Below are positions 12,474 to 57,146 of a stretch of 64,000 nucleotides of DNA, in pieces. The notes beneath the pieces were generated by a model. The model was not told the origin of the DNA. It did no database searches and worked only from the letters and a program-made list of their open reading frames with translations. A program made the position numbers and the translations under genes. The DNA is from an uncultured Thermoanaerobaculia bacterium (GTDB lineage Bacteria > Acidobacteriota > Thermoanaerobaculia > Thermoanaerobaculales > Sulfomarinibacteraceae). Position 1 is the stretch's first letter. Each line of letters starts with the position of its first letter. The stretch spans positions 33,260 to 97,259 of the forward strand of contig CAYTTB010000004.1 in assembly GCA_964440565.1 (NCBI GenBank), given 5' to 3'.

Positions 12474-12527
12474 CGACCGTGCCGCGGCGCGCGGTGCGGT
12501 GCCGTGCGCCGCACGAAGGAGGGAGAC

Positions 12528-12929: not shown

Positions 12930-12945
12930 GGGCGAGGGGACGGCG

Positions 12946-26792: not shown

Positions 26793-26808
26793 CGAAGAAG
26801 CTCCTCGC

Positions 26809-27786: not shown

Positions 27787-27907
27787 CGCCCGCGCGGCCG
27801 CATCCAGCACCCGCCGGACCACCTCCGCACCGGAGCCGATCGCTCCCTTCACGCCCGACACCCTAGCAAGTCCCTTGCCGGCCCGCGAACCGGAGTACCA
27901 TGACGCC

Positions 27908-32471: not shown

Positions 32472-34364
32472 GTGCGCAGAGCCCACCCCACGAACCGGAC
32501 CGCGGCGGCGCTCCTCGCGCTGCTTCTCGCCGGCGCCGGGTGGATCGCGGGGGCGGACCGGCCCGCCGACGCCGGCGATCCCGCGGCGCTGGTGGAGGCC
32601 GCGGAGGACACCTCGCGCCCCGCCGAGGAACGGGCCGAGCTCGCCCGGGCCGCCCGGCGCCTGGCCGGATCCTCGGGCGATCCGTCCCTCCGGGCGGCGG
32701 CCCTGCTCGCGCTGGGACGGGCGGAGCTCGACCTCGGCCGGTACCGCGAGGCCCTGGACGCGCTCCACCGGGCGGAGCGCCTGCTCCGCGCCGCCGGCGA
32801 CCGCTGGAACCACGTCCGGTGCCTGCGCCGCATCGGCGACGTCCAGTTCCGTCTGGGGAGCCACCAGCTGGCCCTGCGGACCTACCTCGAGGCGATGCGC
32901 CTGCTCGAGCCCCTCGCGGGGCCCGACGCGCCCCGGAAGCGGCGCCTCGCCCTCGGGCACCTCGCGGTGATGCTCGGCAACGTGCTGCGCGCGGTGGGCG
33001 ACCGGGAACAGGCCGCGCGCGACTACCGCCGGGGCGCCGAGATCTACGCCCGGGAGGGGTACGACCTCGGCCTGGCGGGCGTCCTCCTCAACCTCGGCAA
33101 CCTGGACGAGGAGCGGGGGGACCGGGAACGGGCGCTGCGGCGGTACGCCAGGGCGCTCCAGATCGCGAGACGGATCGGTGACCGTGGCCTCGAGCGGATG
33201 GCGCTCACCAACCACGCGGCCACCCTGGTCACCCTCGGCCGGCTCGACGGGGCCGGGGACGAGCTCGCCGCCGCGGTGGCGCTCGCGAAGGAGCTCGGGG
33301 ACCGACGTGGCCTCATGCACGCGAGGCGGACGGTGGGCGACCTGCGCCGGGCGCAGGGACGCGTCGGCGAGGCCGTCGCCGCCTACCGTGAGGCGCTGTC
33401 GCTCGCCGGGCGGCTGCACGACGTGCAGCTCGAGATGGAGCTCCACGGCACGCTGGCGGACCTCCTGCTCGACCTGGGCCGCCGCCGGGAGGCCGTGCGC
33501 CACCTCCTCGCCGAGCGGCGCCTCCGACGCGAGCGCGCCGCCTCCGAGACGGCGGCCGCCGTGGCGCGGCTGCGGCTCGCGTACGAGGCCGAGCGGCGCG
33601 AGGAGGAGCTCGCCCTCGCCGAGCTCGAGGCCCGCCAGCAGCGGACGCGGACGCGCCTGCTCGCGCTCGCGCTCGCCCTGGCCGTGGGTCTGCTCGGCGT
33701 CACGGGCTGGGGGCTGTGGACCCGCAGCCGCCTCGCCGAGGAGGTCGCGGCCCGGCACCGCGCGCTCGCCGAGGCGTACCGCCGGCTGGAGGAGGTGTCC
33801 CGCACCGACGATCTCACGGGGCTGCCGAACCGGCGGGCCGGGCTGGAACGGCTCCGGGAGGAGCTGGCACGGGCGGCGCGGGCCGGGACACCGTGCGCCG
33901 TGGCGCTCCTCGACCTGGACGGGTTCAAGGCGGTCAACGACACCCTCGGCCACGCCGCCGGGGACGCCGTTCTGGCCGAGACCGCGCGGCGGGGCGCGGC
34001 CTCGCTCCGCGCCGGTGACCTGCTGGCCCGGTGGGGCGGCGACGAGCTGATGGCGATCCTGCCCGGTGCCGGCCCACGGGAGGCGCGCGAGGCGCTGGAG
34101 CGTCTCCTCGACGCCGTCGCCGGCCGTCCCGTGCGCTGGGAGGACCACGAGCTGGCCGTCTCCCTCTCGGCCGGGATGGTCACCTTCCAGGGGAACGGGC
34201 CCGATCTCGAGCGGCTTCTCGCCGAGGCCGACCGCGCCCTCTACCGCGCCAAGCGGGCCGGCGGCGGGCGGATCGAGATCGCCGGCGGCGAGTCGCCCGA
34301 CCGGACGGCGCCGCCGCGCGGCGGCGGGGGCCACGCCGCGGGCACGGGTACCATGGAACCGTGA
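32472..34364 (+). CDS. TPR-repeat / TM / GGDEF diguanylate cyclase (GGDEL variant, RxxD I-site present)
   Basis: TPR units through the N-terminal 350 aa and one TM (LLALALALAVGLLGVTGWGLW). DDLTGLPNRR, LDLDGFKAVND, RAGDLLARWGGDELMAIL. Confidence 0.85.
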   Translation: MRRAHPTNRTAAALLALLLAGAGWIAGADRPADAGDPAALVEAAEDTSRPAEERAELARAARRLAGSSGDPSLRAAALLALGRAELDLGRYREALDALHRAERLLRAAGDRWNHVRCLRRIGDVQFRLGSHQLALRTYLEAMRLLEPLAGPDAPRKRRLALGHLAVMLGNVLRAVGDREQAARDYRRGAEIYAREGYDLGLAGVLLNLGNLDEERGDRERALRRYARALQIARRIGDRGLERMALTNHAATLVTLGRLDGAGDELAAAVALAKELGDRRGLMHARRTVGDLRRAQGRVGEAVAAYREALSLAGRLHDVQLEMELHGTLADLLLDLGRRREAVRHLLAERRLRRERAASETAAAVARLRLAYEAERREEELALAELEARQQRTRTRLLALALALAVGLLGVTGWGLWTRSRLAEEVAARHRALAEAYRRLEEVSRTDDLTGLPNRRAGLERLREELARAARAGTPCAVALLDLDGFKAVNDTLGHAAGDAVLAETARRGAASLRAGDLLARWGGDELMAILPGAGPREAREALERLLDAVAGRPVRWEDHELAVSLSAGMVTFQGNGPDLERLLAEADRALYRAKRAGGGRIEIAGGESPDRTAPPRGGGGHAAGTGTMEP

Positions 34365-35152
34365 GCCGGTTCCGGGCGGTGCTGCTGGACGTGGACGGCA
34401 CCCTCCTCGAGGGCGGGAGGCCGGTCCCGGGGGCCGACCGTGCGGTGGCGTTCCTGCGTCGGGAGGGGATCCCCTTCCGTCTCGCCACCAACACCACCAG
34501 GATGCCGCGCCGCCTTCTCGCCCGCCGCCTCGCCGGGTGCGGGATCGAGGTCCGGGCGGAGGAGATCCTCTCCGCCCCGCGCGCCGCGGCCTGGTGGCTG
34601 GCCGCCCGGGGCAGGCGCCGGGTGCTGCCGCTGCTGCCCGAGGCCACCCTCGAGGACCTCGAGGGGCTCGAGGTCGTCGAGGCGGAGGCCGAGGCCGTGC
34701 TCGTGGGCGACCTCGGCGCGGCCTGGACGTTCGAGGTCCTCCAGCGCGCCTTCCGCGAGCTGCTCGAGGGGGCCGAGCTCGTCGCCGTGCAACGCAACCG
34801 GTGGTGGGACCCCGGCGACGGGCCCGTCCTGGACGCGGGCCCCTTCGTGGCGGCGCTCGAGTACGCCGCCGGGGCGTCGGCGACCCTGGTGGGCAAGCCC
34901 AGCCCTCCGTTCTTCCGCGCCGCCGCCGAGCGGCTCGGGGTGGAACCGGGGGAGATCCTCGTGGTGGGCGACTCCCCGGAGAACGACGTGGCGGGCGCGG
35001 TGGCGGCCGGGCTCCGGACCGCCCTGGTCCGCACCGGCCGCGGCCGGGCGGCCGATCCCGCACGGCTCGACCCGCGGCCGGAGCTCGTCCTGGACAGCGT
35101 CGCGGACCTCCCCACGGCGCTCGGCCTCGCGCCCCCCGCCGGAATCCGCTAG
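34361..35152 (+). CDS. HAD-IIA family hydrolase
   Basis: GTG 34361 (GTGA overlap). VLLDVDGTLL...ATNTT...GKP.P.FF...VVGDSPENDVAGA. Confidence 0.8.
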   Translation: MSRFRAVLLDVDGTLLEGGRPVPGADRAVAFLRREGIPFRLATNTTRMPRRLLARRLAGCGIEVRAEEILSAPRAAAWWLAARGRRRVLPLLPEATLEDLEGLEVVEAEAEAVLVGDLGAAWTFEVLQRAFRELLEGAELVAVQRNRWWDPGDGPVLDAGPFVAALEYAAGASATLVGKPSPPFFRAAAERLGVEPGEILVVGDSPENDVAGAVAAGLRTALVRTGRGRAADPARLDPRPELVLDSVADLPTALGLAPPAGIR

Positions 35153-35164
35153 GCTGACGGCGGG

Positions 35165-36109
35165 TTGAGCAGGACGATGCGGCCGATCCTCGACATCCGC
35201 AGCGCGAAGGTGGCGGTGGAGCTCACCAGCCGCTGCAACATGCGCTGTCCCATGTGCCCGATGGAGAACCTCCGCCGGCCGGAGACGGACATGCCGTGGG
35301 AGCTGGTGGAGCGCGTGGCGGCACAGTTCGCCGAGCACGGGATCCGGGTGCGCTGGCTGCACGAGATGGGGGAGCCGCTGCTCTACCCGCGCCTCGCGGA
35401 CGCGATCGAGCTGTTCCCGGGGTGCTCCGTCTCCACCAACGCCATGCTCCTCGACGAGGAGCGTGGCCGCGAGCTCCTCGCCACCTCGCTCCGGCGGATC
35501 CGGCTGTGCCTCGACACCGTCAACCCCGGGCTCTACCCGCGGATCCGCCGCGGCGGGGTGTGGGAGCGCACCGTCGCCAACATCCGGGGGTTCCTGGAGC
35601 TGTCCCGCGGCCACGAGATCCGGGTCGAGATCCAGCGGATGGTGACGCTCAGGACCTTCCACGAGACGGTGGAGGACTTCCGGCGGCTGTTCGACCTCGA
35701 CCGCTATCCCCAGGCGGTGGTGATCGAGAAGACCTGCGAGGGGCTGGACACCTCCGACGCCACCGACCTCCACGAGGCCTACTACGGGTGCTTCCAGGGG
35801 TACCCGTTCCGCTGGTTCGTGGTCCTGGCGGACGGCCGCGTCACGCACTGTTGCTACGACGCCCACGGCGAGCAGACCATCGGCGATCTCACCACCCAGA
35901 CGGTGGAGGAGATCCTGGCCTCCCCCGTCCTCGAGCGGTACATGCGCGCGTTCCGGGCCAGGGACTGGGAGACGCTGCCGCGGTGCGGGGAGTGCTTCCG
36001 GAACCCTTCCGGTCGGGCGGTGGCGATGGACCGGCTGGTGCGCCTCGGGCGCCGTCTCGAGCGGGTGCTCCCGGTGACACACGTGGCCCGCAGGCTCATC
36101 AACCGCTGA
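35165..36109 (+). CDS. radical SAM protein with SPASM/twitch-like C-terminal Cys cluster
   Basis: VELTSRCNMRCPMCP (CxxxCxxC), HEMGEPLLYP, C-terminal HCCYDAHGEQTIGDL...LPRCGECF. Start is TTG 35165 or ATG 35177. Confidence 0.8.
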   Translation: MSRTMRPILDIRSAKVAVELTSRCNMRCPMCPMENLRRPETDMPWELVERVAAQFAEHGIRVRWLHEMGEPLLYPRLADAIELFPGCSVSTNAMLLDEERGRELLATSLRRIRLCLDTVNPGLYPRIRRGGVWERTVANIRGFLELSRGHEIRVEIQRMVTLRTFHETVEDFRRLFDLDRYPQAVVIEKTCEGLDTSDATDLHEAYYGCFQGYPFRWFVVLADGRVTHCCYDAHGEQTIGDLTTQTVEEILASPVLERYMRAFRARDWETLPRCGECFRNPSGRAVAMDRLVRLGRRLERVLPVTHVARRLINR

Positions 36110-36119
36110 GGGGGACGAC

Positions 36120-36911
36120 GTGGGGCGCGCCGAGTGGGGTGCCGACCCGGAGTTCTTCGGGCCGCGCCACGCCTTCCGCGAGCGGCTGATCCTCGCCGCG
36201 CTCGGGAACGTCCCCTCCCGCGGCCCCCACCTCGAGTGCGCCGCCGGCGTGGGCTCGCTCTCCCTCGAGCTGGCCCGGCGCGGCGGCCGGGTGGTGGCCG
36301 CGGACCGCTCCCTGCGTTCCCTCGCGGTCCTGCGAGCCCGGGCCCGCGCCGCCCGGCTTGGCGAGCGCGTCATGCCGGTGGTGGCGGACATCACCGCGCT
36401 GCCGTTCCGCGGGGGGGCCTTCGCCTCCGCCACCTCCGCCGAGACGCTGGAGCACATCCCCGACGACGTCCGGGCGGCCGCGGAGCTCGCCCGCGTGCTG
36501 CGGCCAGGCGGGACCCTCGCCGGCACCGTGCCGGCCGACCCCGGCCAGTGGTCGGCGTGGGACGACTGGGCCGGGCACCTCAGGCGCTACACGCGGCGCG
36601 GCCTGGAGCGTCTCCTCGCCGGCGCCGGGCTCGCGCCCCGGGTCCGCACCTGGGGCTGGCCCCTCGTGCGCCTCTACGACGCGCTCTTCCTGCGGCGGGT
36701 GAACCGGCGCCGCCTCGAGAGCGATCTACCGGTGGAGCGCGACCCGAGGCTGTCCGCGGTCCAGCGCCTGGGCCGTGCGCGGTGGCTGGTGCGCGCCGTC
36801 AGTGCGGCGTTCTCGCTCGACCGGCTGGCGCTCGGCGCGCCGTGGGGCGTGGGCCTGCTGTTCGTGGCCACCAGGGAGGGGGCGCCGCGGGAACCGGCCA
36901 GCGGGCGGTGA
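36120..36911 (+). CDS. class I SAM-dependent methyltransferase
   Basis: LECAAGVGSLSLELARRGGRVVAADRS (motif I), AETLEHIPDD, LRPGGTLAGTVP. Confidence 0.8.
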   Translation: MGRAEWGADPEFFGPRHAFRERLILAALGNVPSRGPHLECAAGVGSLSLELARRGGRVVAADRSLRSLAVLRARARAARLGERVMPVVADITALPFRGGAFASATSAETLEHIPDDVRAAAELARVLRPGGTLAGTVPADPGQWSAWDDWAGHLRRYTRRGLERLLAGAGLAPRVRTWGWPLVRLYDALFLRRVNRRRLESDLPVERDPRLSAVQRLGRARWLVRAVSAAFSLDRLALGAPWGVGLLFVATREGAPREPASGR

Positions 36912-38406
36912 GCGACCGCCCCCAGGCGTCGGTGAGGACCAGCCTGAGCTCGTACCCCCGGGAGGGATCCGCCCCGCCCCAGGAGCCGAGCTCGCCCCCC
37001 TCCACTGGCTCCGCCCCCTCGCCCAGGACGGCCCCCACCCTCGCCCCCGTCGGCACCGCCTCGAGGCGCCAGCGCCCACCGGAGGCCGGCGACCCGGGGG
37101 CTCCGTACAGCCCCGCCCAGCCGAGCAGCGTCACGCGCTGGCCCGGTCCCGGAGGGACCGCCGGTGGCGGGGCCAGGGCGGCGAGGCCGATCACGCCCTG
37201 GCCGAGCGCCTCGATCCGCGAGCCGACCTCGCTCTGGGCGATCAGTATCCGCGCCCGGTCGTAGGCTCCGAACCGGGTCCAGAGCCCCTCCGGGTCCTGC
37301 GGGTACGGAAGGGCCCGGCTCGCCTCGAGCACCAGCGTGCCGTCGCCGGTGGCCTGCACGTCGCAGGTGAAGGTGGACCCGCGCACCGCCGCCCACCCCC
37401 CGTCCTGGACCCCGAAGTACCCCCCCGACCCGTCCACGGTGGTGTCGGCCATGTCCAGCCGCGCACGCTCCATGACGATGACCTCGCCGAGCAGGCAGTC
37501 CCGCACCCGGACCCGGGCGTCGGCCTGCGGGTACAGGTTCCAGGTGTCGATGGTGGCGTTCTCCAGCACCAGCCGGCGGTCGGGGAGCGCCAGCTCCCGG
37601 TGAGCCACGGTCTCGCCGTCGCGGAGGCCCTCGATCTCGGTCGAGGTGGGCAGGTGCAGCCCCACCACCATCCACTGCTCGGGCGGGATGTCGCGCAGCG
37701 TCAGGTCGCTGCCCGCGCGGACCAGGAGCGGCCACAGCGTGACCTGGCAGCGGCGCATCTCGATCCGCTCGGGAATCCCCTCGGACCCCGGTGGCGGGAA
37801 GCTCCACCGCTCCACGAACCCGGGCAGCGGCGGGCTGTACACCGCGCGGCTCCCCGCGGGAAACTCCGGCCACACCCACAGCTCGCCCTCGCCACCCTCG
37901 CGCGGGATGTCCTCGAGCACCATCGTGGCGGCGTCCTGGACGATGCACTCGAACTGGCCGGAAAGCCGCCGCGCCTCGAGCCGTGAGGTGTCCATGGCCA
38001 GGAGCTGGGCGAAGCCGAACCCCGTGTCCTCGACGGTGAGGACGCCATCACCGCCCGCGATGAGCGCGTGCTGGACCCCGGAGGGGACGCGGTAGTCGCA
38101 GCGGCGCACCTCGACCGTGCCCCCGTACCAGGCCACCAGCGAGTACTGACCGTGGTACCGGCTCTCGAACTCGATCACCGAGTCCTCGAGCACGATCCGT
38201 CCGCCGGAGAGGGCGTAGACGCTTCCGGAGAACCGGACCCCCGGCTCGCCGACGCCCACGACCCTGAGCTCGCCGTCGCCGATCACCATCACCTCGCCGA
38301 GGTCGGTCGGCTCGGTGATGGTGAGGGGCCCGGTGACCACCAGCGGCTCCTGTGCGGCGGCCACGGCGGCGCAGGCGAGCACGGCGGCAAGCGCGGCGCG
38401 GGTCAC
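36799..38406 (-). CDS. secreted hypothetical protein, beta-helix-like repetitive fold suspected
   Basis: GTG 38406 after GGGAGAA. Signal peptide VTRAALAAVLACAAVAAAQEP. Recurring short beta-strand/turn pattern (VLEDS.IEF, VLTVEDTGF, LVLENATID). No named family recognised. The 3' end overlaps the convergent methyltransferase gene by 113 nt. Confidence 0.5.
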   Translation of the reverse strand: MTRAALAAVLACAAVAAAQEPLVVTGPLTITEPTDLGEVMVIGDGELRVVGVGEPGVRFSGSVYALSGGRIVLEDSVIEFESRYHGQYSLVAWYGGTVEVRRCDYRVPSGVQHALIAGGDGVLTVEDTGFGFAQLLAMDTSRLEARRLSGQFECIVQDAATMVLEDIPREGGEGELWVWPEFPAGSRAVYSPPLPGFVERWSFPPPGSEGIPERIEMRRCQVTLWPLLVRAGSDLTLRDIPPEQWMVVGLHLPTSTEIEGLRDGETVAHRELALPDRRLVLENATIDTWNLYPQADARVRVRDCLLGEVIVMERARLDMADTTVDGSGGYFGVQDGGWAAVRGSTFTCDVQATGDGTLVLEASRALPYPQDPEGLWTRFGAYDRARILIAQSEVGSRIEALGQGVIGLAALAPPPAVPPGPGQRVTLLGWAGLYGAPGSPASGGRWRLEAVPTGARVGAVLGEGAEPVEGGELGSWGGADPSRGYELRLVLTDAWGRSLTARWPVPAAPPPWWPRTAGPRPTARRAPAGRARTPH

Positions 38407-38676
38407 GCTCCCATTCTCCCGCCGCCCGGGGCGCGGCGCAAACGGGCCCCGGTCCGCACCGGGCCCGAGGCTCCGGCGCCCGCGTCCGGGGATCGTCTCC
38501 CCGCGGCGGGGAGGGCCCGCCCGCCGCGCGCGCCGGGCCGCCCGACCTCCGGCGAGCAGGGAGCCGCCCGCCGCGCGGGCGGGAGGCGCCGCGGCGCTCG
38601 CCGCGAGCGGAGGAAGCCCCCTCCCGCCGCGCCCGGCCTCGCCCGCTCGGGTACGGCGTGCCCCCCGATCGTCCCG

Positions 38677-38759
38677 CGAAGACTGTCCCCATCTCGGCGC
38701 CCGGCGAAGACTGTCCCCATCTCGGCGATCGTCCGACGAAGACTGTCCCCATCTCGGCG
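38677..38759 (+). repeat. three identical tandem copies of the 23-nt motif CGAAGACTGTCCCCATCTCGGCG (38677-38699, 38705-38727, 38737-38759); degenerate 4th copy near 38770
   Basis: Counted base by base. Offsets are 28 and 32 nt. Lies in the 500-nt intergenic region upstream of the DoxX gene. Confidence 0.9.
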
Positions 38760-38905
38760 CCCCGACCGGGAGTGTCCCCGGTTCATCCGGCGGTGGAGGG
38801 TGTCGCCGGCGCGCGGGCGGCGGCCGTCGCGAATGAAACGCGATCCCGGTTCCACGCATACCAGCCAGCGAGCACCGCGCCTCTCCGGCGCCACGGGAGA
38901 CACCC

Positions 38906-39406
38906 ATGAATCCGTACCGCACGCTCCGGACCGCCGCCGAACGCCTCCGCGGCCTCGCCCGCCGCCTCGCCTGGCTCGCCCCGCTCGCCACCCGCATCGT
39001 TCTGGGGCTCGCCTTCGTCCAGGCAGGGCTCGGCAAGTTCCAGCACTTCGATGGAACGGTCCGGTACTTCTCGAGCCTGGGGATACCGGTCGCCACGTTC
39101 AGCGCCGGCCTCGTGGCGACGATGGAGCTCGTGGGGGGCGCGGCCCTCCTCGCGGGGTTCCTCTCGCGCCTCATGGCCTCCTGCCTGGCCGTGACCATGA
39201 TCGTGGCCCTGCTCACCGCCGAGGGCGACGCCTTCCTCCGTTCCTGGAGCCCAGGGGCCGACATCGCCCCCAGCGACGTCCTGCCGTTCCGTTTCCTGCT
39301 CCTCCTCGCCTGGGTGGCGCTCTACGGCCCCGGGACGGCGAGCCTCGACGCGCTGCTGGCGCGATGGCGGGGCCGGGGTGTAACCGGGGCCGCCCCTCCG
39401 GCATAG
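38906..39406 (+). CDS. DoxX-family membrane protein
   Basis: 166 aa. LAPLATRIVLGLAFVQAGLGKF...ATMELVGGAALLAGFLSRL. Four TMs. Confidence 0.85.
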   Translation: MNPYRTLRTAAERLRGLARRLAWLAPLATRIVLGLAFVQAGLGKFQHFDGTVRYFSSLGIPVATFSAGLVATMELVGGAALLAGFLSRLMASCLAVTMIVALLTAEGDAFLRSWSPGADIAPSDVLPFRFLLLLAWVALYGPGTASLDALLARWRGRGVTGAAPPA

Positions 39407-39483
39407 TCGCGGTCAGTGCGCATGAGATTCATACTCAACCTGTGGCCCCACCGGCCACGCGACCGCGAGAGGGAGAGGCATCC

Positions 39484-39945
39484 ATGAAGAGTTCACGCAT
39501 GAAGGACGTCCTGATCCGCACCGCCATGGCCGGCATGCTCGCCGGGGCCGGGCTGGCCGTCCCCGCCGGCGCCCACGCCGACCCGGCCCCCGCCGCACGC
39601 AACGGATGCGGCGGGAAGGACGGCTGCGGCAGCCAGAGCCAGAAGCGGGGCGAGAGGAGCGCGGAGGTCCACGTCTGCCGGGGCCTCAACTCGTGCCGGG
39701 GGAAGGGCAACTGCAGGTCCGGCGACAACGGCTGCGCCGGCAAGAACTCCTGCAAGGGCAAGGGTGGCTGCGCCAGCGCCGAGGCCCGTCACGCGTGCAA
39801 GGGCCAGAACGCGTGCAAGGGGCTCGGCGGGTGCAGGAGCGGTGACAACGGCTGCGCCGGCAAGAACTCCTGCAAGGGCAAGGGTGGCTGCGCGGTGCCG
39901 CTGCACAGGCCCCCGCAGAAGGACGGCGAGAAGAAGGCGGCGTGA
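39484..39945 (+). CDS. Sec-signal Cys-rich RiPP precursor, bufferin-like (two 6-Cys modules; 14 Cys total)
   Basis: ATG 39484 is 5 nt after GAGAGGGAGAGG (last 153 aa of the artefactual ORF 38068..39945). Signal peptide [33 protein letters not shown]. Core modules [32 protein letters not shown] and [32 protein letters not shown]. Immediately upstream of DUF692 and DUF2063 genes. Confidence 0.8.
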
Positions 39946-39955
39946 GGCAGGGGAC

Positions 39956-39992
39956 GGCTGGCGGGCCGGTGACCTCGCCCGGCCCGCCGGCT
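39956..39992 (+). terminator. strong stem-loop between precursor and MNIO genes (core GGCGGGCCGG-N9-CCGGCCCGCC), candidate intra-operon attenuator
   Basis: The 10-bp perfect GC stem at 39960-39969/39979-39988 extends to about 14 bp with G-U pairs. It starts 11 nt after the precursor stop and ends 24 nt before the next start. Confidence 0.45.
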
Positions 39993-40016
39993 CCCCGGTC
40001 CGGAAGGAGGGCAGGG

Positions 40017-40865
40017 ATGGGCACGCCCAACCGATGGGGTTTCCCGGACCTCGGGCTCGGCCTCGGGCTCAGGACGGTGCACTTCGACGAGATCCTGGAG
40101 CGCCGGCCGGAGCTCGGGTTCTTCGAGATCCTCACCGAGAACTTCCTGGACACCGGAGGCCGCCCCGCCGCGGTCCTCGACGCCGTGGCCGCCACCTACC
40201 CGGTGGTGCTGCACGGGGTCTCCATGTCCGTCGGCTCCACCGACCCGCTCGACCTCGAGTACCTGCGCAAGGTGAAGGCGCTGGCCGAGCGGACCGGAGC
40301 GCTGTGGGTCTCGGACCACGTCTGCTGGACGGGAGTGATGGGGCGCAACACCCACGACCTGCTGCCGCTGCCGTACACCGAGGAGGTCCTGCGGCACGTC
40401 GTGGAGCGGGTCCGGCTGGTGCAGGACGTCCTCGAGCGCCCTCTGGTGCTCGAGAACCCGTCCACCTACCTGGAGTTCGCGCACTCCGAGATGCCCGAGT
40501 GGGAGTTCGTCGCGCGGCTCGCCGAGGAGGCGGACTGCGGTCTGCTCCTCGACGTCAACAACGTCTTCGTGAGCGCCTTCAACCACGGCTTCGACCCCCG
40601 TGCCTACATCGAGGCGATTCCGGGCGAGCGGGTCTGTCAGTACCACCTCGCGGGCCACACCCACAAGGGGACCCACATCCTGGACACCCATGACGATCAC
40701 GTGGTGGAGCCGGTGTGGGAGCTGTACGGCCACACGCTGCGGCACGTGGGCCTGCGGGCGACCCTGCTCGAATGGGACGCGGACATCCCTCCCCTGTCCA
40801 CCTGCATCGCGGAGGTGCGCAAGGCGCTTTCCTGGCGCGAGCGGGAGGTGTCCCGTGCCGCCTGA
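40017..40865 (+). CDS. DUF692 / MNIO-family (MbnB/BufB-like multinuclear non-heme iron oxidase)
   Basis: ATG 40017 after GGAAGGAGG. Family hallmarks: [88 protein letters not shown]. Confidence 0.9.
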
Positions 40866-41688
40866 GTCACTCTCCCTGGAGCGCGTGCAGCGCTGGCTGC
40901 AGTCCGTGATCGTGCATCCCGGCGGCGTCGAGGAGGCGCTGGCCTCGCCCGAGGCGGCGGCCGACCTCCCGCCCGAGGCGCTGCCCGAGGTGGTCCGCCC
41001 CTCCTGGAGCCTCGACCCCCGCGAGCGGGTGGGCATCTACCACGGCATGTACCTGCTGCGGATGATCGAGGCGCTCGAGGCCGACTTCCCCGTCATCCGC
41101 CACCGTCTCGGAGCGGACGCCTTCGCCGACCTCGTCGCCGCCTACGTCGCCGAGTACCCGTCCCGGAGCTACACCCTGAACCGTCTGGGCGATCGCCTGC
41201 CCGAGTTCCTCGACGCGCATCCGGAGATCCCCGACCACGCCTCCCTCGCGGACCTCGCCAGGTTCGAGCTCGCCGTCACCCAGGTGTTCGACGAGGAGGA
41301 GACCCCCTCCCTCGCCGCGGAGCACCTCGCCGATCTGCCCCCGGAGAGCTGGCCGGAGCTCCGCCTCCGCCCCGTCGCGGCCTTCCGCCTGCTCGCGCTC
41401 CGGCACGCGGTCCTCCCCGACCTGGAGGCGTACCACGAGGACAGGCCGCCGCCGGCGCCGCGCCGCCGGGCCACGTTCCTCGCGGTGTACCGCCGCGCCT
41501 TCCGGGTGTACCACCTCGCGCTCTCCCGCCCCGAGCACGAGCTGCTCGCGGCCCTCGCCCGCGGCGCGCCCCTCGGGGAGGCGCTCGCCACCGCCGCCTC
41601 GCGCCTCCCGGCCGGGCGGCGCGAGGGGAAGGTCTTCGCCTGGTTCCGGAGCTGGGTCGCGGCGGGCCTGTTCCGGGCCCCGGCCTGA
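40855..41688 (+). CDS. DUF2063-domain protein (MNIO partner, BufC/MbnC-like role)
   Basis: GTG 40855 overlaps the MNIO gene by 11 nt. N-terminus [17 protein letters not shown]...[62 protein letters not shown] is the DUF2063 pattern. Confidence 0.8.
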
Positions 41689-41697
41689 GCGAGCCGC

Positions 41698-42426
41698 TCA
41701 GAACCGGAGGGCCGCGCTCAGGAACGCCGCGGTGGCCGAGCCGCGCCTGAGCTCGGCGCGGAGGCCGAGCAGCGGCAGACGCAGCGCGACCCCCACCGCG
41801 GCCACCGCCGTCGTCGCCTCGACCCGGTGGCGGAGGGGGTCCGGATCGCCCCAGCTGGCCTCGGCCTCCCACCGCCGGACGCCCAGGGCGCCGTAGGGAA
41901 CCAGCGGGCCCACGCCCTTGGAGACCGTCACCGTCACCGAGGTGGTGGTCAGGTCCACCGGTCCCGACCCGAGCTCCGACCACGCTGCACGCAGGCCGAC
42001 GGCGGGCACCAGCGTCGAGCCGCGGACCAGCGCCACGCGCCCCTCGAGGCCGTGGAACGTCTCCCCCGCGACCGACCCCACCGAGGCGCCCACGTCGAGC
42101 CCCAGCGGCAGCCCCTTGCGGACCGCCACCCGCACCCCCGCCAGGCCGCCGGCGGCGCGGCTCGCCCCCTCGAGGGTGCGCCGCCACCAGGGCGCGTCAC
42201 GGTCGCCACCCACCCACACCGCGCCCGCGTCCACCTCGAGGCCCATGACCCCCAGCGCCCGCGAGGGCCCGGCGGGCGGCGCGATGGCCTCGGCCAGGTG
42301 CTCCGCGAGCTCGCGAAACTCGCCCGGGCTCAGCGCCGGATCGAGGTGGAGGTCGCCCGCGTGCGCCCAGCCCGATCCCGCGACGATCGCCGCCACAACC
42401 GACAATGCCAGCACCCGTTCACGCAT
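41698..42426 (-). CDS. putative outer-membrane beta-barrel protein
   Basis: Signal peptide MRERVLALSVVAAIVAGSGWAHA. Alternating beta pattern. C-terminal ...AAFLSAALRF (terminal Phe). Overlaps the upstream GGDEF-EAL gene by 8 nt. Confidence 0.5.
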   Translation of the reverse strand: MRERVLALSVVAAIVAGSGWAHAGDLHLDPALSPGEFRELAEHLAEAIAPPAGPSRALGVMGLEVDAGAVWVGGDRDAPWWRRTLEGASRAAGGLAGVRVAVRKGLPLGLDVGASVGSVAGETFHGLEGRVALVRGSTLVPAVGLRAAWSELGSGPVDLTTTSVTVTVSKGVGPLVPYGALGVRRWEAEASWGDPDPLRHRVEATTAVAAVGVALRLPLLGLRAELRRGSATAAFLSAALRF

Positions 42427-44203
42427 CCCGTCCCTCCGCCAGCACGCGCTCCAGTGGCTCCGGCCGGTGACACCAGTACCCCTGCAGGAAGTCCACGCCG
42501 AGGCCGAGGGCGACCTCGGCCGCTCCCCGCCCCGGCACGCCCTCCGCCACCGTCACGAGGCCGAGCAGGCGCGCGATCTCGGTCACGGACCGGACCATGG
42601 CACGGTCCAGTGAGCTCGTCACCAGGTCCTGGACGAACCTCCGGTCGATCTTGAGGACATCCACCGGCAGGTCGCGCAGCGAACCGTACGAGGCCATCCC
42701 GGCGCCGAAGTCGTCGAGCGCGAAGCGGAACCCCCCGGCCCGCATCCTGCCCATCACCGCCACCACCCGGTCGAGCTCCTCCACGGCCCCGCTCTCGGTG
42801 ACCTCGAAGCAGACCTGGCCGGGCTCCAGCCCCGACTCGCGGACCGCCTCGGCCGCGAGCTCCGGAAACCGGTCCCAGAGAAGGGTGGGGGCCGAGACGT
42901 TCACACCGACCCACTCGATGGCCTCCCGGACGCCCGCGGGCGCACGCCGCACCGCCGCCGCCACGGCCCCCAGCACCCACCGATCGAGCTCCCGGATCAG
43001 CCCGAACCGCTCCGCCGCGGGAACGAACTCGCCCGCCGTGTGCAGGCTGCCCTCCCGGTCCAGCAGCCGCACCAGGGCCTCGAAGCGGACCCCCCGATCG
43101 CCGCCGGCGGCGGGGACGATCCGCTGGGCGTGGACGCGGAGCCGGGCCTCCTCCATCGCCCGGTTGAGCTCCACAACCCACCGCACCTCGTTCTCCCGCC
43201 GGCGGATCTCGAGGCTGTCCACGTCGTAGAGGAGCACGCGGTCGCCGCCGCCCCGCTGGGCGGCGCAGCAGGCGGCGTCCGCCTCGCCGAGCAGGTCCTC
43301 CGCGGAGGCGGCCCCGCCCGCCACCGGGACCACCCCGCACGAGGCGGTCACCCCGATCACCGACGCCCCCCAGTGCACGCGATGCTCGCGGACGAGCTCG
43401 AGCGCCCGCCGGCAGAGCGCCACCGCCGCGGCCGGCGTGCAGTCGTGCACCAGCACCGCGAACTCGTCGCTCCCCACCCTGGCGACCACGTCCCCATCGC
43501 GGAACGTGAAGCGGAGGAGATCGGCGACGTCGCGCAGGAGCCGGTCCCCTGCCGCGTGTCCGGCCGCCTCGTTGACCAGGCGGAAGCGGTCGAGGTCCAT
43601 GTAGCACAGGGCGTGGGTCGCCTCTCCCCGCGCCGCGAGCGTCTCGCGCAGGCGGCGCCCGAGCTCGGCCCGGTTGACCAGCCCGGTGACCGGATCGCGC
43701 GTGGCGTGGTGCGCGAGCTGCAACGCCAGCAGCCGCCGCTCGCTCACGTCCTGGAAGACGATCACGTGCCCCAGCACCCCGCCACGCGGCTCGAGGATGG
43801 GGGCGACCGAGGCGCGGACGGGAACCCTGCGGCCGTCGCGCCGGGCGAGCGAGACGTCCTCGATCACGCCTCCCTCCCGGGCCAGCGACAGCGGGTCCGT
43901 CTCCTGCACCTCGCCCGGCCCCTCGTGCTCCGCCGCCAGCCGCAGCACCTCCGCCACCGGGCGGCTCTCCGCCTCCTCCCGGCTCCAGCCCGTGAGGCGC
44001 TCCGCCGCGGCGTTGAGCGTGCGGACCCTGCCGGAGGGGTCCGTCACCACGACGCCGTCGGCGATGGAGGCCAGCGTCACCTCGGCCAGCCGCCGCTGAC
44101 GCTCCAGCTCCTCGAGCTGCCGGTCGTAGGCCCGCGTGGTCTGCACCAGCAGGTTGTGCAGGATCGCCGCATCGAGGTCCGGCCGGCCGCCCCCGCCGCT
44201 CAC
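42419..44203 (-). CDS. PAS / GGDEF (GSDEF variant) / EAL c-di-GMP turnover protein
   Basis: PAS (IADGVVVTDPSGRVRTLNAAAERLTGW). RDGDVVARVGSDEFAVLV. EAL domain FEALVRL...DDFGAGMASYGSL...LKIDR. GTGA overlap with the FIST gene. Confidence 0.85.
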   Translation of the reverse strand: MSGGGGRPDLDAAILHNLLVQTTRAYDRQLEELERQRRLAEVTLASIADGVVVTDPSGRVRTLNAAAERLTGWSREEAESRPVAEVLRLAAEHEGPGEVQETDPLSLAREGGVIEDVSLARRDGRRVPVRASVAPILEPRGGVLGHVIVFQDVSERRLLALQLAHHATRDPVTGLVNRAELGRRLRETLAARGEATHALCYMDLDRFRLVNEAAGHAAGDRLLRDVADLLRFTFRDGDVVARVGSDEFAVLVHDCTPAAAVALCRRALELVREHRVHWGASVIGVTASCGVVPVAGGAASAEDLLGEADAACCAAQRGGGDRVLLYDVDSLEIRRRENEVRWVVELNRAMEEARLRVHAQRIVPAAGGDRGVRFEALVRLLDREGSLHTAGEFVPAAERFGLIRELDRWVLGAVAAAVRRAPAGVREAIEWVGVNVSAPTLLWDRFPELAAEAVRESGLEPGQVCFEVTESGAVEELDRVVAVMGRMRAGGFRFALDDFGAGMASYGSLRDLPVDVLKIDRRFVQDLVTSSLDRAMVRSVTEIARLLGLVTVAEGVPGRGAAEVALGLGVDFLQGYWCHRPEPLERVLAEGRDA

Positions 44204-45315
44204 GCGCCGGTCTCCCGGAACAGCGCCAGCACCGCCGTCTGGTTGTAGAACGCCGGGCGCCCGCTCACGGCCGGACCCACCTCCCCGAAGGTGAAGAACC
44301 CCGCGAGCGGCGCCTCACCCAGCGCCGTGGAGAGGGCGGCGGCCTCCTCCCCTGCCCGATCGCCCAGCACAAGCTCCCGCCCCACGCAGGAGAAGACCAC
44401 CGCAGCCTCGGGCCGGAAGGTGGGACGCACCCGCGCCGCCCCCCGCGCCAGCGAGCCACCGTCACCGATCCCGAGCCGCACGCGGTCGCCCTCCACCAGG
44501 TCTCCCCAGTAGGTCACCGCACCCGGCGGGCGGTCGAACCAGCGCATGCTCCGGTACAGCCCCCGCCGCTCCGGCCTCGGCCCGTCCACGATGAGCGGGA
44601 ACCGGTAGGCGGTCTCGGGCAGCGGCGCGAGCTCCCCGCCCACCGTGAACAGCGCCTCGTACCACCGCGTGGCCGGCTCCCCCTCGAGCTCGTAGAGGAC
44701 GTTGCCGGCGGCCTTGGTGACCGTGAACCTCGGCCCCGCGGGCTCCCACCCCCGCACGATCTCCACCGCCACCTCCACGCCCGAAAACCCCACCACCACC
44801 GCCCCCGCCTCCACCACGCCCCCGCCGGTGGCCACCCGGGCCAGCGGGACCTCGACCGGCTCCGCCTGGGAGGCGAGCCCGCCGGCGAGCCGGCCGCAGT
44901 CCACTCCCATGGCCCGGAGCCTGGCCAGGAACGCCTGGACCGGAAACCGGAGCCCGTCGGCCAGCAGGAGGGCACCCGAGGAGCGGCGGATCAGCGCCAC
45001 GGCCTCCCGCACGGAATCCAGGGCGAGAGGTTCACCGCGCCGGCCGGGGACCACCGCGATCTCCGCCGACCACCGCGAGCCCCGGGGCCCGAGGAGCAGC
45101 GCCACGCCGTCCCGCCGCAGATGGCTCCCAGCGAACTGGGTCACCGCCTCCACCGCCACCACCCGGCTCGCCGGCCACCGTGCCTCGAGCTCCGCCAGCC
45201 TCCCGTCCAGCTCGTGGCCGGGCGGGACGAAGGCCAGCACCAGCTCCGGCTCCACCTCCGACCCGGAGCCGCCGTCCCGCCCGAGCTCGGCCAGCGGCAC
45301 CACGGACCCTCGCAT
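44200..45315 (-). CDS. FIST (FIST_N + FIST_C) sensory-domain protein
   Basis: Last 371 aa of the artefactual ORF 44200..47076, from ATG (CAT 45313-45315). C-terminus AAVVFSCVGR...LAGFFTFGEVGP....PAFYNQTAVLALF is typical of FIST_C. Confidence 0.8.
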   Translation of the reverse strand: MRGSVVPLAELGRDGGSGSEVEPELVLAFVPPGHELDGRLAELEARWPASRVVAVEAVTQFAGSHLRRDGVALLLGPRGSRWSAEIAVVPGRRGEPLALDSVREAVALIRRSSGALLLADGLRFPVQAFLARLRAMGVDCGRLAGGLASQAEPVEVPLARVATGGGVVEAGAVVVGFSGVEVAVEIVRGWEPAGPRFTVTKAAGNVLYELEGEPATRWYEALFTVGGELAPLPETAYRFPLIVDGPRPERRGLYRSMRWFDRPPGAVTYWGDLVEGDRVRLGIGDGGSLARGAARVRPTFRPEAAVVFSCVGRELVLGDRAGEEAAALSTALGEAPLAGFFTFGEVGPAVSGRPAFYNQTAVLALFRETGA

Positions 45316-45501
45316 CCTCGCGACCCTCCCGAATCCCCCTCGGGGCAGGCTCCACCCTGTCTCGGGTACAGAGCGCCTCCACGATAGCCGCGCCCGGCGG
45401 GGTTTCGCAAGGCCCGAGGGCGTCCGAGATCCCCTATACTTGACCGCGATGAGCCTCGGCCGGGAAGCGCCGCGCGCGAGCCCCGGGGGACGGCCGGGCG
45501 C

Positions 45502-47757
45502 ATGAACGCCCGTTCCCGCCTCTGGCTCGCCGGAGCCGCCGCCCTCGCGGTGCTCGCCACCCTGGCGTGGGGACTCGGGGTGGAGTACCGGGCGAGCGCC
45601 CGCCAGCTCGGGTTCGCGATGCAGGAAGCGGGCGCGTGCACGGTCACCGCCGTGATGCCGCGCTCCCCCGCCGCCCGCGGAGGTCTGCGCACCGGAGACC
45701 GGATCGTCTCGGTGAACGGCGCGCCCGTCCGCTCCGTCCTCGACTACCAGCGGCTGGCACGGACGTTCCGCCGCGGGGTCCCGGTCCGCCTCGTCGTGGA
45801 GCGGGAGGGACGTCCGGTGGAGCTCCACATCCGGCCGGGGTACCCGTTCTGGACCGTGGGCAGGATCGCCACCGTGGTGGTGGTGCTGGCGTACCTCGCG
45901 CTCGCCGTCGCCTCGCTCCTCTACGGCGCGGGCGACCCGCGTGCCAGCCTGCTCTTCTGGTTCTCGGTCGCGGTGGCTCTCGAGATCGCGCTGCCCGATC
46001 TGCTGGTGGGCTTCCCGCGCGTCCAGGAAGGGGTCATCGTCGCGACGTTCCTGCTCAACGGGATCCAGGCCGGCATCGAGCTGCACCTCGCCTCGGTGGT
46101 GCCCGAGCCGCGGCCGGTGCTGCGCCGTCACCCGCGGCTGGTGCTCGGGTTCTACGCCGTGGGCGGCGGCATCGGCCTGGTGGGCGCGCTCACCGCCGTC
46201 TCCGAGTTCCGCGGCCTCGGCTGGTTCCCGTGGACCCTGCAGCAGGCCGCGTACGCGATCTTCGACGTGGGGTTCTTCCTCTGGGCCGCGGCGGTCTGCT
46301 TCCTCCTCTACCGGGGGGTGAGGACGGCCTCCACCCCGCGCGGGCGCCACCAGGCGCTGCTGATCCTCATGGGGGTGCTGCCGTGGGCGGTCCTGGCCAC
46401 CCTCTACTCCATCCTGGACCTCCTGGGCAGCGGGGCGCCGACCTGGATCTCCGCCGTGCAGCCGTACGTCCTGCTCGTCTACCCGGTCGCGGTGTTCGCG
46501 GCGATCTTCCGGTACGGTCTGTTCGACATCGAGGTCGTGGTCCGCCGTGGCCTCGCGTACGCGGGGGCCACCGCCCTGCTGCTCGCCGTGTTCTACGCGG
46601 TGCTCGGGACGGTGGGCGCCCTCCTCTCGCCACTGCTCGGGGAGCACGCCTCGATCTGGGTGTTCTCCTCTGCCGCGCTGGTCCTCGGCCTGCTCGCGAG
46701 CCCGCTGTACCGGCTGGTGCACCGGACGGTGGAGACCCGCTTCTTCCCCGAGCGGCGCGCGCTCCAGGAGCGGCTCGCGGACCTCGCCGACCGCCTGCCC
46801 GCCCTGGGCAGCCTCGAGGCGATGGGACGGCACCTCGTGCGCGAGCTGGCGCAGATCTTCCGCGTGGAGCCGGTGACCCTGATGCTCGCCGACACCGCCA
46901 GCGGGGTGCTCGGCGAGCTGGCGACCACGGACCGCCAGGAGGACCGGTTCGAGCGCTCCCTCCTGCTCGCCGCGGACGACCCCGGGATCGCCCGGCTCAA
47001 GCAGGCCCGCCGGCCGGCGCCGGTGCGGGAGCTCGTCCGGTACTCGGGCTCGCTCGCACAGCGGGCGCGCGACCACCGCGCCACCTACGTGGTCCCGCTA
47101 CTGAGCCGCGAGCGGCTCGTGGGTCTCGTGTTCCTCGGCGACCGCACCAACGGGGAGCCCCTGCGCCGCGAGGAGCTGGAGCTGCTCACCCTGTTCGGGC
47201 ACGGGCTCGCCTCGGTGCTGGAGAACGTGCGCCTCTTCCACTCGGCCACCTACGAGGGACTGACCGGCCTCCTGCGCCGGGAGGCCATCCTCGAGCGGCT
47301 CGGGGAGGAGCTCCAGCGCGCGGCGCGCTACGAGCGGCCGCTGTCGGTGGCCATGGCGGACCTCGACCACTTCAAGGAGGTCAACGATACCCACGGCCAC
47401 CTCACGGGCGACGCGCTGCTGAAGGCCGTGGCCCACCACCTCAAGTCGGAGCTGCGCTCGGCCGACGCCGTCGGCCGGTACGGGGGCGAGGAGTTCCTCA
47501 TCGTGCTCCCGGAGACGGATCTGGACGGCGCCCTGGCCGTGGCCGAGAAGATCCGGGAGCGCATCCAGACGCTGGAGGTGGTGGCGGAGGACGGGACGCG
47601 CGTACCCATCACGGTCTCCATCGGCGTGGCCACCGCCCCCCCGGCGAGCACGGCCGGGCTCCAGCCCCATCTCCTGATCGAGACGGCGGACCGCAACCTG
47701 CTCGAGGCGAAGCGGCTGGGCCGCAACCGCGTGATCGGGGGGCGCCTGCTGCCGTGA
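45502..47757 (+). CDS. PDZ / multi-TM / GAF / GGDEF diguanylate cyclase (GGEEF, RxxD I-site)
   Basis: PDZ (SPAARGGLRTGDRIVSVNGAPV). About 8 hydrophobic segments. GAF-like region. YEGLTGLLRR, MADLDHFKEVND, RSADAVGRYGGEEFLIVLPET. Confidence 0.85.
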   Translation: MNARSRLWLAGAAALAVLATLAWGLGVEYRASARQLGFAMQEAGACTVTAVMPRSPAARGGLRTGDRIVSVNGAPVRSVLDYQRLARTFRRGVPVRLVVEREGRPVELHIRPGYPFWTVGRIATVVVVLAYLALAVASLLYGAGDPRASLLFWFSVAVALEIALPDLLVGFPRVQEGVIVATFLLNGIQAGIELHLASVVPEPRPVLRRHPRLVLGFYAVGGGIGLVGALTAVSEFRGLGWFPWTLQQAAYAIFDVGFFLWAAAVCFLLYRGVRTASTPRGRHQALLILMGVLPWAVLATLYSILDLLGSGAPTWISAVQPYVLLVYPVAVFAAIFRYGLFDIEVVVRRGLAYAGATALLLAVFYAVLGTVGALLSPLLGEHASIWVFSSAALVLGLLASPLYRLVHRTVETRFFPERRALQERLADLADRLPALGSLEAMGRHLVRELAQIFRVEPVTLMLADTASGVLGELATTDRQEDRFERSLLLAADDPGIARLKQARRPAPVRELVRYSGSLAQRARDHRATYVVPLLSRERLVGLVFLGDRTNGEPLRREELELLTLFGHGLASVLENVRLFHSATYEGLTGLLRREAILERLGEELQRAARYERPLSVAMADLDHFKEVNDTHGHLTGDALLKAVAHHLKSELRSADAVGRYGGEEFLIVLPETDLDGALAVAEKIRERIQTLEVVAEDGTRVPITVSIGVATAPPASTAGLQPHLLIETADRNLLEAKRLGRNRVIGGRLLP

Positions 47758-50502: not shown

Positions 50503-50704
50503 CGGTGTGGGTCATCGGAGCGGACGATGCGGTGGCACGCGCCCGGCGGAGCGCGCCCGCCGCGGGGCCTCGCCGGCCCACCCGTCGGCGCGTCCGCTCT
50601 CTCCTCGCTCGTCGCGACGCGCAGGTCTCCCTCCCACGGCGGCACGTCGCTCACGGAAACGAGCTCCCCGACGAGGCCGCCGGCGCCTCGCTCCGCGCCG
50701 GCTC

Positions 50705-50820
50705 GAGCGACCCGACGCCCGGGGGAGCGGGCCTGCACGCGCGGGGAGTGTCCCCATTTCGCGAGCGACCTGACGCCTGGGGGAGCGGGCCTGCACGGGA
50801 GGGGAGTGTCCCCATCTCGC
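50705..50820 (+). repeat. two tandem 58-nt units (50705-50762, 50763-50820), each ending GGGGAGTGTCCCCATYTCGC
   Basis: Aligned by hand. Five differences: C/T at three single positions plus CGC vs GGA, which differs at 2 of 3 bases. Each unit holds the GGGGA-GTG-TCCCC palindrome and a GCCCG-N6-CGGGC hairpin. Confidence 0.9.
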
Positions 50821-50888
50821 GCCGCCTCGGCCGCGGATGACGGACCCCGGCACCGCGAGGGGGCGCCGGGACGGCCGATAATCGTCCC

Positions 50889-53018: not shown

Positions 53019-53101
53019 GCCGGACGGCAGCCCGCTCCCACCCCGGACCGCCACGCGACCCACCGCCGGGGACCGCTGTCCCCACCGCAGCCCGCGCATG
53101 T

Positions 53102-53183
53102 GAGAACACTGTCCCCACCTCGCTCTCCCCACCCCGGGGGAGAACACTGTCCCCACCTCGGGGGAGAACACTGTCCCCACCTC
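53102..53183 (+). repeat. three tandem copies of GAGAACACTGTCCCCACCTC (53102, 53140, 53164) plus a degenerate copy at 53076-53086
   Basis: Counted base by base. Offsets are 38 and 24 nt. Lies in a convergent intergenic region. Confidence 0.9.
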
Positions 53184-53426
53184 CCGCGGCGTCCCGCCAC
53201 CGGCGGCATCGCCTCCGCACCGCCGCGCGCGACGGCGAGGTCCGCCGGCCGTCCCGGTTCCGGAGGGTGGCCGTCCGCGGGCCGGGATCCGACGCGCCGA
53301 CCGGGATGCCGCACCCCGGGATGGGGCCGGGCGCGGCCCCCCGCGAGGCGTGCCCCATCCGCGAGGCGCCGCCGGGCTCGAGCGAGCCGCTCGCCCGGAC
53401 GGCGCGCCCGCGGCGCGGAGGCGGTC

Positions 53427-57018: not shown

Positions 57019-57146
57019 GTCACCAGTGATACTCCCGTCCCCCGCGACCCGCAAGGCCCCCTGGGCTGGAGTGTCCCCAGGAATTCCGGCTGTCGTGCTC
57101 GCTCCGCCACGGTCGGCCGGGACCGGGATCGGCCTCTCGGCCGATC

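Follow-up and report, generated by a model that had tools for sequence, protein, structure and literature searches.

The window analysed here, a 64 kb stretch of contig CAYTTB010000004.1 from an uncultured Thermoanaerobaculia bacterium, contains a bufferin-type gene cluster at 38906-41688, composed of four open reading frames (ORFs) on the + strand. The cluster's first gene, doxX (bufD-like; 38906-39406), encodes a 166-aa membrane protein of the DoxX family, and is followed by bufA (39484-39945), encoding a 153-aa BufA2-type precursor, bufB (40017-40865), encoding a 282-aa multinuclear non-heme iron oxidase (MNIO, formerly DUF692), and bufC (40855-41688), which has a GTG start and encodes a 277-aa DUF2063 partner protein (PME1/HvfC-like). 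The doxX-bufA and bufA-bufB spacings are 77 nt and 71 nt, and bufB and bufC overlap by 11 nt. A first-pass annotation made from the letters of the DNA had described four same-strand genes within 2.8 kb, with this 77-nt gap between DoxX and precursor genes and this 11-nt overlap of the MNIO and DUF2063 genes, and both the layout and the distances hold. Two JGI metagenome contigs (L001 and L002, from samples 3300023442 and 3300023440) match the window at 99.99-100% identity, and independent JGI gene calls on them give the same four genes (166/153/282/277 aa). All four ORFs are intact and identical across the two independent metagenome samples, and the 153-aa precursor is present residue for residue on both contigs. 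Bufferins are Sec-exported peptides made by the ribosome and modified after translation (RiPPs) that buffer periplasmic copper, their central cysteines being converted to 5-thiooxazoles by BufB (MNIO) and BufC (DUF2063) (PMC11626156). The earlier identification of the locus as a cluster of this type, from its combination of precursor, MNIO, DUF2063 and DoxX genes, is backed by curated hidden Markov models (HMMs), by 847 homologues of the precursor in a database search and by the A-B-C gene context.

The BufB protein matches Pfam PF05114 (MbnB_TglH_ChrH) with E = 1.2e-107 and scores 357.7 bits against the NCBIfam MNIO_BufB equivalog NF050167, above its cut-off of 310; the HvfB, ApyH, MbnB and ChrH models all fall far under their cut-offs. 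It carries the motifs LHG65, SDH99, LEN145, DVNN179, YHLAGH209, DTHDDH223 and EWD252, which include every DUF692 hallmark listed in the first-pass annotation, and an alignment with the solved DUF692 structure 3BWW (E = 4.6e-47) pairs its metal-site motifs with identical residues. BufB has EWD-A-D where Lys-Cys-type MNIOs have ERD-F, and in relatives the residue at this marker site is A, E, D, Q or G. The absence of Phe after the catalytic Asp is compatible with the Cys-Lys substrate class, and the Phe-to-Asp specificity marker proposed for Cys-Lys MNIOs (PMC13097082) is only loosely matched. The bufC product scores 71.7 bits against DUF2063 (PF09836; cut-off 27.2, E = 6.1e-20), with a weak RRE-like part, the C-terminal NGO1945_C domain reaching 23.9 bits against a cut-off of 27. 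It also matches HvfC (NF050145) at E = 9.2e-14, under the cut-off of that model, and a search of the PDB with its sequence gave no match at E <= 1. DoxX matches PF07681 (E = 4.6e-21) and scores 66.3 bits, under the cut-off of 80, against HvfX (NF050144); it is probably an accessory membrane redox protein, and DoxX is a frequent though optional component of such clusters. The Pfam and NCBIfam searches that had been proposed as a check returned significant matches for the DUF692, DUF2063 and DoxX families, and a match of the precursor that is significant but under the curated cut-off; scores of this size greatly exceed what chance would give.

The precursor contains 14 cysteines, at residues 42, 48, 65, 71, 77, 84, 90, 96, 105, 111, 117, 124, 130 and 136, and the residue listing bears out the Gly/Lys/Cys-rich core that had been described for it. 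Residues 1-32 (39484-39579) form a predicted signal peptide: its n-region is basic (K2, R5, K7, R12), residues ~10-27 are hydrophobic, and A-H-A precedes D33, in agreement with the AXA rule. This N-terminus is conserved in an alignment of 50 homologues. The mature core (D33-A153) would comprise 121 residues, with a mass of ~12.0 kDa (on average ~11,975 Da when unmodified and reduced), a pI of 9.4, 26 Gly and 14 Lys. Within it lie two 6-Cys domains, H63-A97 (39670-39774) and H103-A137 (39790-39894). In both modules (C65-C96 and C105-C136) the cysteines are spaced exactly CX5CX5CX6CX5CX5C, and the two 35-residue modules are identical at 28 positions. At the DNA level they form a 104-nt direct repeat (39670-39773 and 39790-39893) with 83% identity and a distance of 120 nt. 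All 12 module cysteines are invariant in the alignment. So are the His at position -2 from each module's first Cys (H63, H103) and the Asn at position -2 from several others, giving an H-x-C/N-x-C-K-G context. The NCBIfam BufA2 model NF050166 matches the precursor in two stretches with E = 1.1e-12, and all 50 aligned homologues match the same model at E <= 1e-3. A survey of thousands of Buf2 precursors found that 90% have 6 Cys and the rest 12 Cys as a duplicated domain (PMC12452194), and the precursor described here is this duplicated 12-Cys form (BUF_6/12Cys, Cys-Lys captophorin). The first-pass annotation had correctly named a 6- or 12-Cys class beside the DUF2282 precursors.

The two remaining cysteines, C42 and C48, form a variable N-terminal pair (39607-39627; NGCGGKDGC) that also occurs in close homologues (P0001, P0006, P0009, P0024), with three others (P0002, P0003, P0005) carrying just one of the two. 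Since its presence varies among the closest homologues, the pair is a clade-typical, non-essential extension. Over 27 nt, the DNA of the C42/C48 segment shares 70-74% identity with the SGDNGCAGK stretch in both modules, a weak hint that the N-terminal segment is a decayed partial repeat.

A separate observation concerns the N-termini of other homologues. An RR-x-F/L pattern lies ahead of the first Cys domain in 54 of the 120 best homologues (including P0007, P0016, P0020, P0032, P0034, P0037 and P0054), an upper bound as a few sequences were scanned over the whole protein; the window precursor is not among them. It usually reads M(D/K)RR(E/K/D)F(T/S)K, with a mildly hydrophobic segment behind it, and fits the consensus (S/T)RRxFLK of the twin-arginine translocation (Tat) pathway. 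Bufferins are described as Sec substrates, and neither 'Tat' nor 'twin-arginine' appears in PMC11626156, PMC12452194 or PMC13097082. If a Tat-exported subclass exists, its peptides would leave the cell already folded and modified.

The locus was compared with 80 genome loci that encode related precursors. The bufA-bufB-bufC context is conserved in most of them and this core spans phyla, with a bufC homologue directly after bufB in nearly all. The order doxX-bufA-bufB-bufC, or the part of it retained on truncated contigs, is present in 12 of the 80 (L003-L007, L010, L011, L013, L014, L066, L079, L082), of which the closest nine are from Thermoanaerobaculia, Sulfomarinibacteraceae and Vicinamibacteria metagenome-assembled genomes (MAGs). 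Most of the remaining loci have bufA-bufB-bufC with no detectable DoxX, and five have the order A-B-C-DoxX (L042, L064, L069, L080, L081). Because the same order occurs in these 12 loci, including the nine closest, the DoxX-first arrangement is a clade trait and no peculiarity of the window locus. The flanking genes are not syntenic with those of relatives, save that L019 and L020 also have a convergent PAS-GGDEF-EAL gene, and the conserved functional unit is therefore (doxX)-bufA-bufB-bufC only. The housekeeping protein PrsA encoded in the window (20754-21683) is 80-85% identical to proteins from Thermoanaerobaculales MAGs, a placement by sequence that points to an uncultured member of the Thermoanaerobaculales (Acidobacteriota) as the host. 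This matches the taxonomic affiliation of the closest buf loci and argues for vertical inheritance.

The first-pass annotation had regarded the DoxX-first order and the two extra cysteines as deviations from the canonical cluster, and the product as probably uncharacterised. Both deviations are real, but neither is unique, as each recurs in close relatives. The papers that we found describe no experimentally characterised 12-Cys member; however, the novelty was overstated, because of this recurrence and because the family has been mined exhaustively (PMC12452194, PMC13097082). The arrangement of a 6-Cys precursor with DUF692 and DUF2063 was already reported in 2021 (PMC8692599), a cluster core of precursor, MNIO, DUF2063 and DoxX has been described (PMC12452194), and the captophorin survey of Gadgil et al. 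catalogued 21,424 precursors, in which the 'Cys-Lys' group includes BufA2 (PMC13097082). Given that these surveys cover Buf2/captophorin precursors, the window locus is a member of a well-catalogued class.

Conservation of the gene core also bears on whether the precursor is modified at all. A sizeable share of Buf precursors have no adjacent MNIO (PMC12452194), and a bufA homologue occurs without bufB in the available DNA of L039, L055, L060, L075 and L076, some of which are truncated. The window protein could likewise be exported unmodified, as a disulfide-rich or metallothionein-like Cys-rich protein, with BufB and BufC acting on another substrate or inactive. Against this, an intact BufB with all catalytic motifs is encoded 71 nt downstream of the precursor gene and is translationally coupled to BufC, and A-B-C is the unit that is conserved across phyla. 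Export of an unmodified protein is thus very unlikely, and we consider the precursor to be the probable substrate of BufB and BufC.

Of the characterised systems, Bufferin 2 of Caulobacter vibrioides (BufA2B2C2, CCNA_03001-02999) shares with the window a precursor that has the CX5CX5CX6CX5CX5C module, the N-x-C-K-G context and, as predicted for the window, a signal peptide, a BufB-type MNIO, a DUF2063 partner encoded immediately downstream and a putative promoter of the extracytoplasmic function (ECF) type. The window precursor differs in having two tandem 6-Cys domains and the variable N-terminal CX5C pair, such that its core is 121 aa long compared with 61 aa in Caulobacter BufA2. In addition, doxX lies ahead of the window precursor whereas the Caulobacter buf2 cluster is without doxX, the host is acidobacterial, the candidate -10 box is GCATA rather than CGAA, and the precursor scores under the BufA2 cut-off. 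The duplicated architecture itself is common to the window and the 12-Cys precursors that make up ~10% of Buf2, such as WP_077285100 from Cognaticolwellia aestuarii (PMC12452194); unlike these, the window precursor belongs to a sub-clade of Acidobacteriota in which doxX leads the cluster and the precursor is extended at its N-terminus by N-(G/S)-C-(G/S)-G-K. Bufferin 1 and gig (buf1ABCD in Caulobacter, gigABCD in Cupriavidus metallidurans) have the same four protein families and the same periplasmic copper-buffering logic, and their sigmaF/NrsF control resembles the regulation that we propose for the window. However, their precursor is of the 4-Cys DUF2282 type and their canonical order is A-B-C-DoxX, neither of which applies to the window.

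More distant are the EGKCG or Lys-Cys captophorins (oxazolin HvfA, fontiphorin, gonophorin and bulbicupramide), which likewise combine an MNIO, DUF2063 and sometimes DoxX with a 5-thiooxazole product and a link to copper. Their substrate motif, in contrast, is a repeated EGKCG, the catalytic Asp of their MNIOs is followed by Phe (ERDF in 3BWW, EWDAD in the window), and the HvfB model gives 261 bits on the window MNIO against a cut-off of 360. In methanobactin (MbnABC) an enzyme of the MNIO fold also modifies cysteines of a ribosomal peptide to give a copper chelator, but the enzymes are only distantly related (the MbnB model gives 63 bits against a cut-off of 325), the partner protein is MbnC, and the product is an oxazolone-thioamide secreted for copper uptake and not for periplasmic buffering.

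From its gene content and conserved domains, the locus is very probably a doxX-bufA-bufB-bufC operon of an uncultured Thermoanaerobaculales bacterium for a Buf2-class bufferin (Cys-Lys captophorin group) that serves in copper sequestration. Gene content, enzyme families, the conservation of the catalytic motifs and of the 12 module cysteines, and the duplicated domains are shown here, whereas we infer what the enzymes do, which metal is bound and how the peptide is exported from the homologous Caulobacter Buf1/Buf2 and fontiphorin. For the 6-Cys Caulobacter Buf2, a loss of 4 Da at each of the four central cysteines and a disulfide between CysI and CysVI add up to -18 Da; BufB and BufC are necessary and sufficient, and DoxX is dispensable for Buf1 modification and function (PMC11626156). 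The 5-thiooxazole has been confirmed as a common product (PMC13097082; bioRxiv 2025.12.15.693703). In the cytoplasm of the window host, BufB with the DUF2063/RRE-type BufC would use O2 and its iron cluster to turn core cysteines of the precursor into 5-thiooxazoles; the likeliest targets are the four central cysteines of each 6-Cys domain, eight in total. The Sec-type signal peptide, cut after AHA, would carry the peptide to the periplasm, where the first and last Cys of each domain would pair as a disulfide and the mature Gly/Lys-rich peptide would sequester excess copper. By analogy with Buf2, with four central cysteines and one disulfide per domain, we predict eight thiooxazoles and two disulfides, equivalent to about -36 Da in total.

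Two candidate ECF-sigma-type promoters were found by motif matching at the 5' side of the operon, both on the + strand. P1 (TGAAAC-N16-GCATA, 38834-38860) ends 46 nt before the doxX ATG, while P2 (TGTAACC-N15-GCATA, 39379-39405) is embedded in the 3' end of the doxX gene, with 79 nt between it and the bufA ATG and the TAG stop of doxX directly after it (GCATAG). On both strands of the window, TGWAAC-N16-GCATA has exactly two matches, compared with 0.00 expected, and still two if one mismatch is allowed. In 1.68 Mb of related loci, again on both strands, the strict motif has eight matches; seven of them share the coding strand with, and lie shortly upstream of, doxX (L007, L010, L013, L014) or bufA (L004, L008, L011). 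Allowing one mismatch adds L003 on the doxX side and L012 on the bufA side and gives L011 the same two-site arrangement as the window, so that the motif stands at window-equivalent places in nine close relatives. This conserved TG(A/T)AAC-N16-GCATA motif is new here. The Caulobacter sigmaF site, GTAACC-N16-CGAA, drives CC3254-3257 (buf1) and CC2907-2905 (buf2) (PMC3511200); its two-block architecture resembles the window motif, and the -35 half of P2 is GTAACC. In two Vicinamibacteria MAGs, L005 and L006 (L006:3933-5227, - strand), an ECF sigma gene (PF04542/PF08281) is divergent from and adjoins a doxX-bufA(12-Cys)-bufB-bufC cluster, with a gene for an NrsF anti-sigma factor (PF06532, 77 bits) beside it, and TGAAAC-N16-GCAAA lies upstream of the sigma region-2 coding part in both. 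From the position of the motif, its likeness to the sigmaF site and the sigma and NrsF genes next to the cluster in L005 and L006, we infer ECF (SigF/NrsF-type) control of the window operon, with a separate promoter that would boost expression of the precursor.

Several observations weigh against this overall interpretation. The signal-peptide call was made by eye and from a hydropathy profile only. The BufA2 score of the precursor, 48 bits, is under the curated cut-off of 60, although this model is 79 positions long and may suit two-domain proteins poorly. An AlphaFold2 model of the precursor from the 50-sequence alignment was uninformative, with a predicted local distance difference test (pLDDT) score of 47 and a predicted template modelling (pTM) score of 0.16, and lends no structural support to its fold or cysteine pairing. 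The literature that we found reports no experiment on any 12-Cys member or on the window locus. Finally, there are no copper genes adjacent to the operon, the nearest one, for a P1B-type ATPase (YHS, HMBD), being ~30 kb away. This lack of a neighbouring copper gene would suit a different role for the same enzymology, in which the thiooxazole peptide buffers Hg, Au, Ag or Cd, or answers oxidative, hypochlorite or sulphur stress, instead of copper. In other bacteria, hypochlorite defence is reportedly under NrsF/SigF control. The gig/buf genes were first found as gold-induced, with a Cr and Cd response through sigmaF in Caulobacter (PMC3511200), MerC-Buf2 fusions suggest mercury, and DoxX homologues protect against oxidative and sulphur stress (PMC12452194). 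However, every characterised member (Buf1, Buf2, fontiphorin, oxazolin and bulbicupramide) is linked to copper; copper induces buf operons and the peptides protect against it, and Cu induces buf1 and buf2 whereas Fe, Zn and Mn do not (PMC11626156). A role in which copper is replaced by another metal or stress is thus unlikely, and copper sequestration is preferred.

The other points of this kind concern regulation. The -10 half of the window motif, GCATA, differs from the CGAA of the Caulobacter sigmaF site. Neither tblastn with the L006 proteins nor Pfam on the 45 called genes revealed an ECF sigma or NrsF gene in the window, the Pfam scan leaving out three stretches without confident gene calls (8278-10337, 26793-29343 and 50503-53426). 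L005 and L006 have sigma and NrsF genes alongside the cluster, yet no strict motif upstream of doxX or bufA. All three are points in favour of the conserved motif being the operator of another regulator, or a conserved RNA or DNA element, and not an ECF promoter. On the other hand, ECF promoters typically consist, as the motif does, of two blocks at a fixed distance of 15-16 nt with AAC in the -35 half, in uniform orientation and 40-110 nt before start codons, and TGAAAC-N16-GCAAA precedes the sigma gene of L005 and L006 itself. We therefore judge a non-promoter element to be the less probable explanation, if one that deserves some weight, and retain ECF-type promoters as the preferred reading.

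Scans of 38300-41900 for sigma-70 promoters and intrinsic terminators found none, and an Rfam scan at gathering thresholds returned tRNA-Gln only and no riboswitch. A GC-rich hairpin in the bufA-bufB spacer (39950-39996, + strand; -48.2 kcal/mol) is not significant against shuffles in this 75% GC DNA (z = -1.63); as a possibility only, it could limit read-through or stabilise the bufA transcript. A hairpin in the doxX-bufA spacer likewise does not exceed shuffled sequence in stability (z about -1.6), and one after bufC (z = -3.06) overlaps the 3' end of the convergent gene. Upstream of doxX, at 38666-38762, lie three tandem ~30-bp copies of a dispersed repeat with the core ACTGTCCCCAYCTC. Three to four further copies are at 53076-53185, between the stop of a + strand ORF (53017) and the 3' end of a - strand radical-SAM gene (53427), and one copy with one mismatch is at 50805-50818. 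By chance, 0.08 matches would be expected. The tandem copies at 38666-38762 were considered as an operator of the operon and this was rejected, because the unit recurs at these two places and none of the 80 related loci contains it; it has the look of an intergenic repeat specific to the species.

The wider surroundings of the operon contain several further gene groups. Secreted-looking proteins without a Pfam match are encoded on both sides on the - strand, one at 36799-38406 (535 aa, with a signal-like N-terminus) and one at 41698-42426 (242 aa, starting MRERVLALSVVAAIVAGSGWAHA, possibly a beta-barrel); neither is conserved beside buf clusters in relatives. Upstream, on the buf strand, 34361-36911 includes genes for a HAD hydrolase, a radical SAM/SPASM protein (35165-36109) and a class I methyltransferase (36120-36911); SPASM enzymes often act in peptide maturation. 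Genes for cyclic-di-GMP signalling are dense around the locus (42419-47757, 32472-34364 and 49114-50502) and encode PAS-GGDEF-EAL, FIST, PDZ-GAF-GGDEF, TPR-GGDEF and PilZ proteins. The convergent PAS-GGDEF-EAL gene after bufC has counterparts at the same place in L019 and L020 (33% identity), possibly by coincidence. A heavy-metal gene group at 3-8277, ~30 kb from the buf operon, comprises the C-terminal part of a resistance-nodulation-division (RND) pump (AcrB/CusA-like, 3-1058), a P-II-like protein (1069-1413), several unannotated ORFs and the P1B-type ATPase, which has an N-terminal YHS and two HMBD domains (5794-8277). DUF302 and histidine kinase genes with two receiver proteins are found at 12504-14832. 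On the - strand, 53427-59647 holds a run of genes for a radical SAM protein, two DUF362 proteins, a Memo-AMMECR1 fusion (55501-57009) and a multi-4Fe-4S protein; AMMECR1, Memo and radical SAM proteins form a recurrent module of unknown function.

A bolder and improbable proposal is that the doxX-first, dual-promoter, 12(+2)-Cys clusters of Thermoanaerobaculia and Vicinamibacteria constitute a distinct bufferin subclass, in which DoxX would be an obligatory quinone-linked redox partner for a peptide with at least eight thiooxazoles, and the N-terminal N-G-C-G-G-K-D-G-C segment, perhaps left over from a third repeat, would add a further modified or metal-binding site. If so, the product would be a chelator of higher capacity, or for a different metal, than Caulobacter Buf2.

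Bufferins and captophorins rank with the largest families of RiPPs, and their part in defending bacteria against copper has been recognised recently. The experimental work that we found is confined to Pseudomonadota and, for Buf2, to the single-domain 6-Cys form. The window locus provides a clean, intact acidobacterial example of the 12-Cys form with a testable prediction, a change of ~-36 Da on the 121-residue core. The conserved candidate promoter could define a regulon in Thermoanaerobaculales genomes, and the comparison of loci is evidence that the placement of DoxX varies by clade. The locus thereby extends the known family and leaves its current understanding unchallenged.

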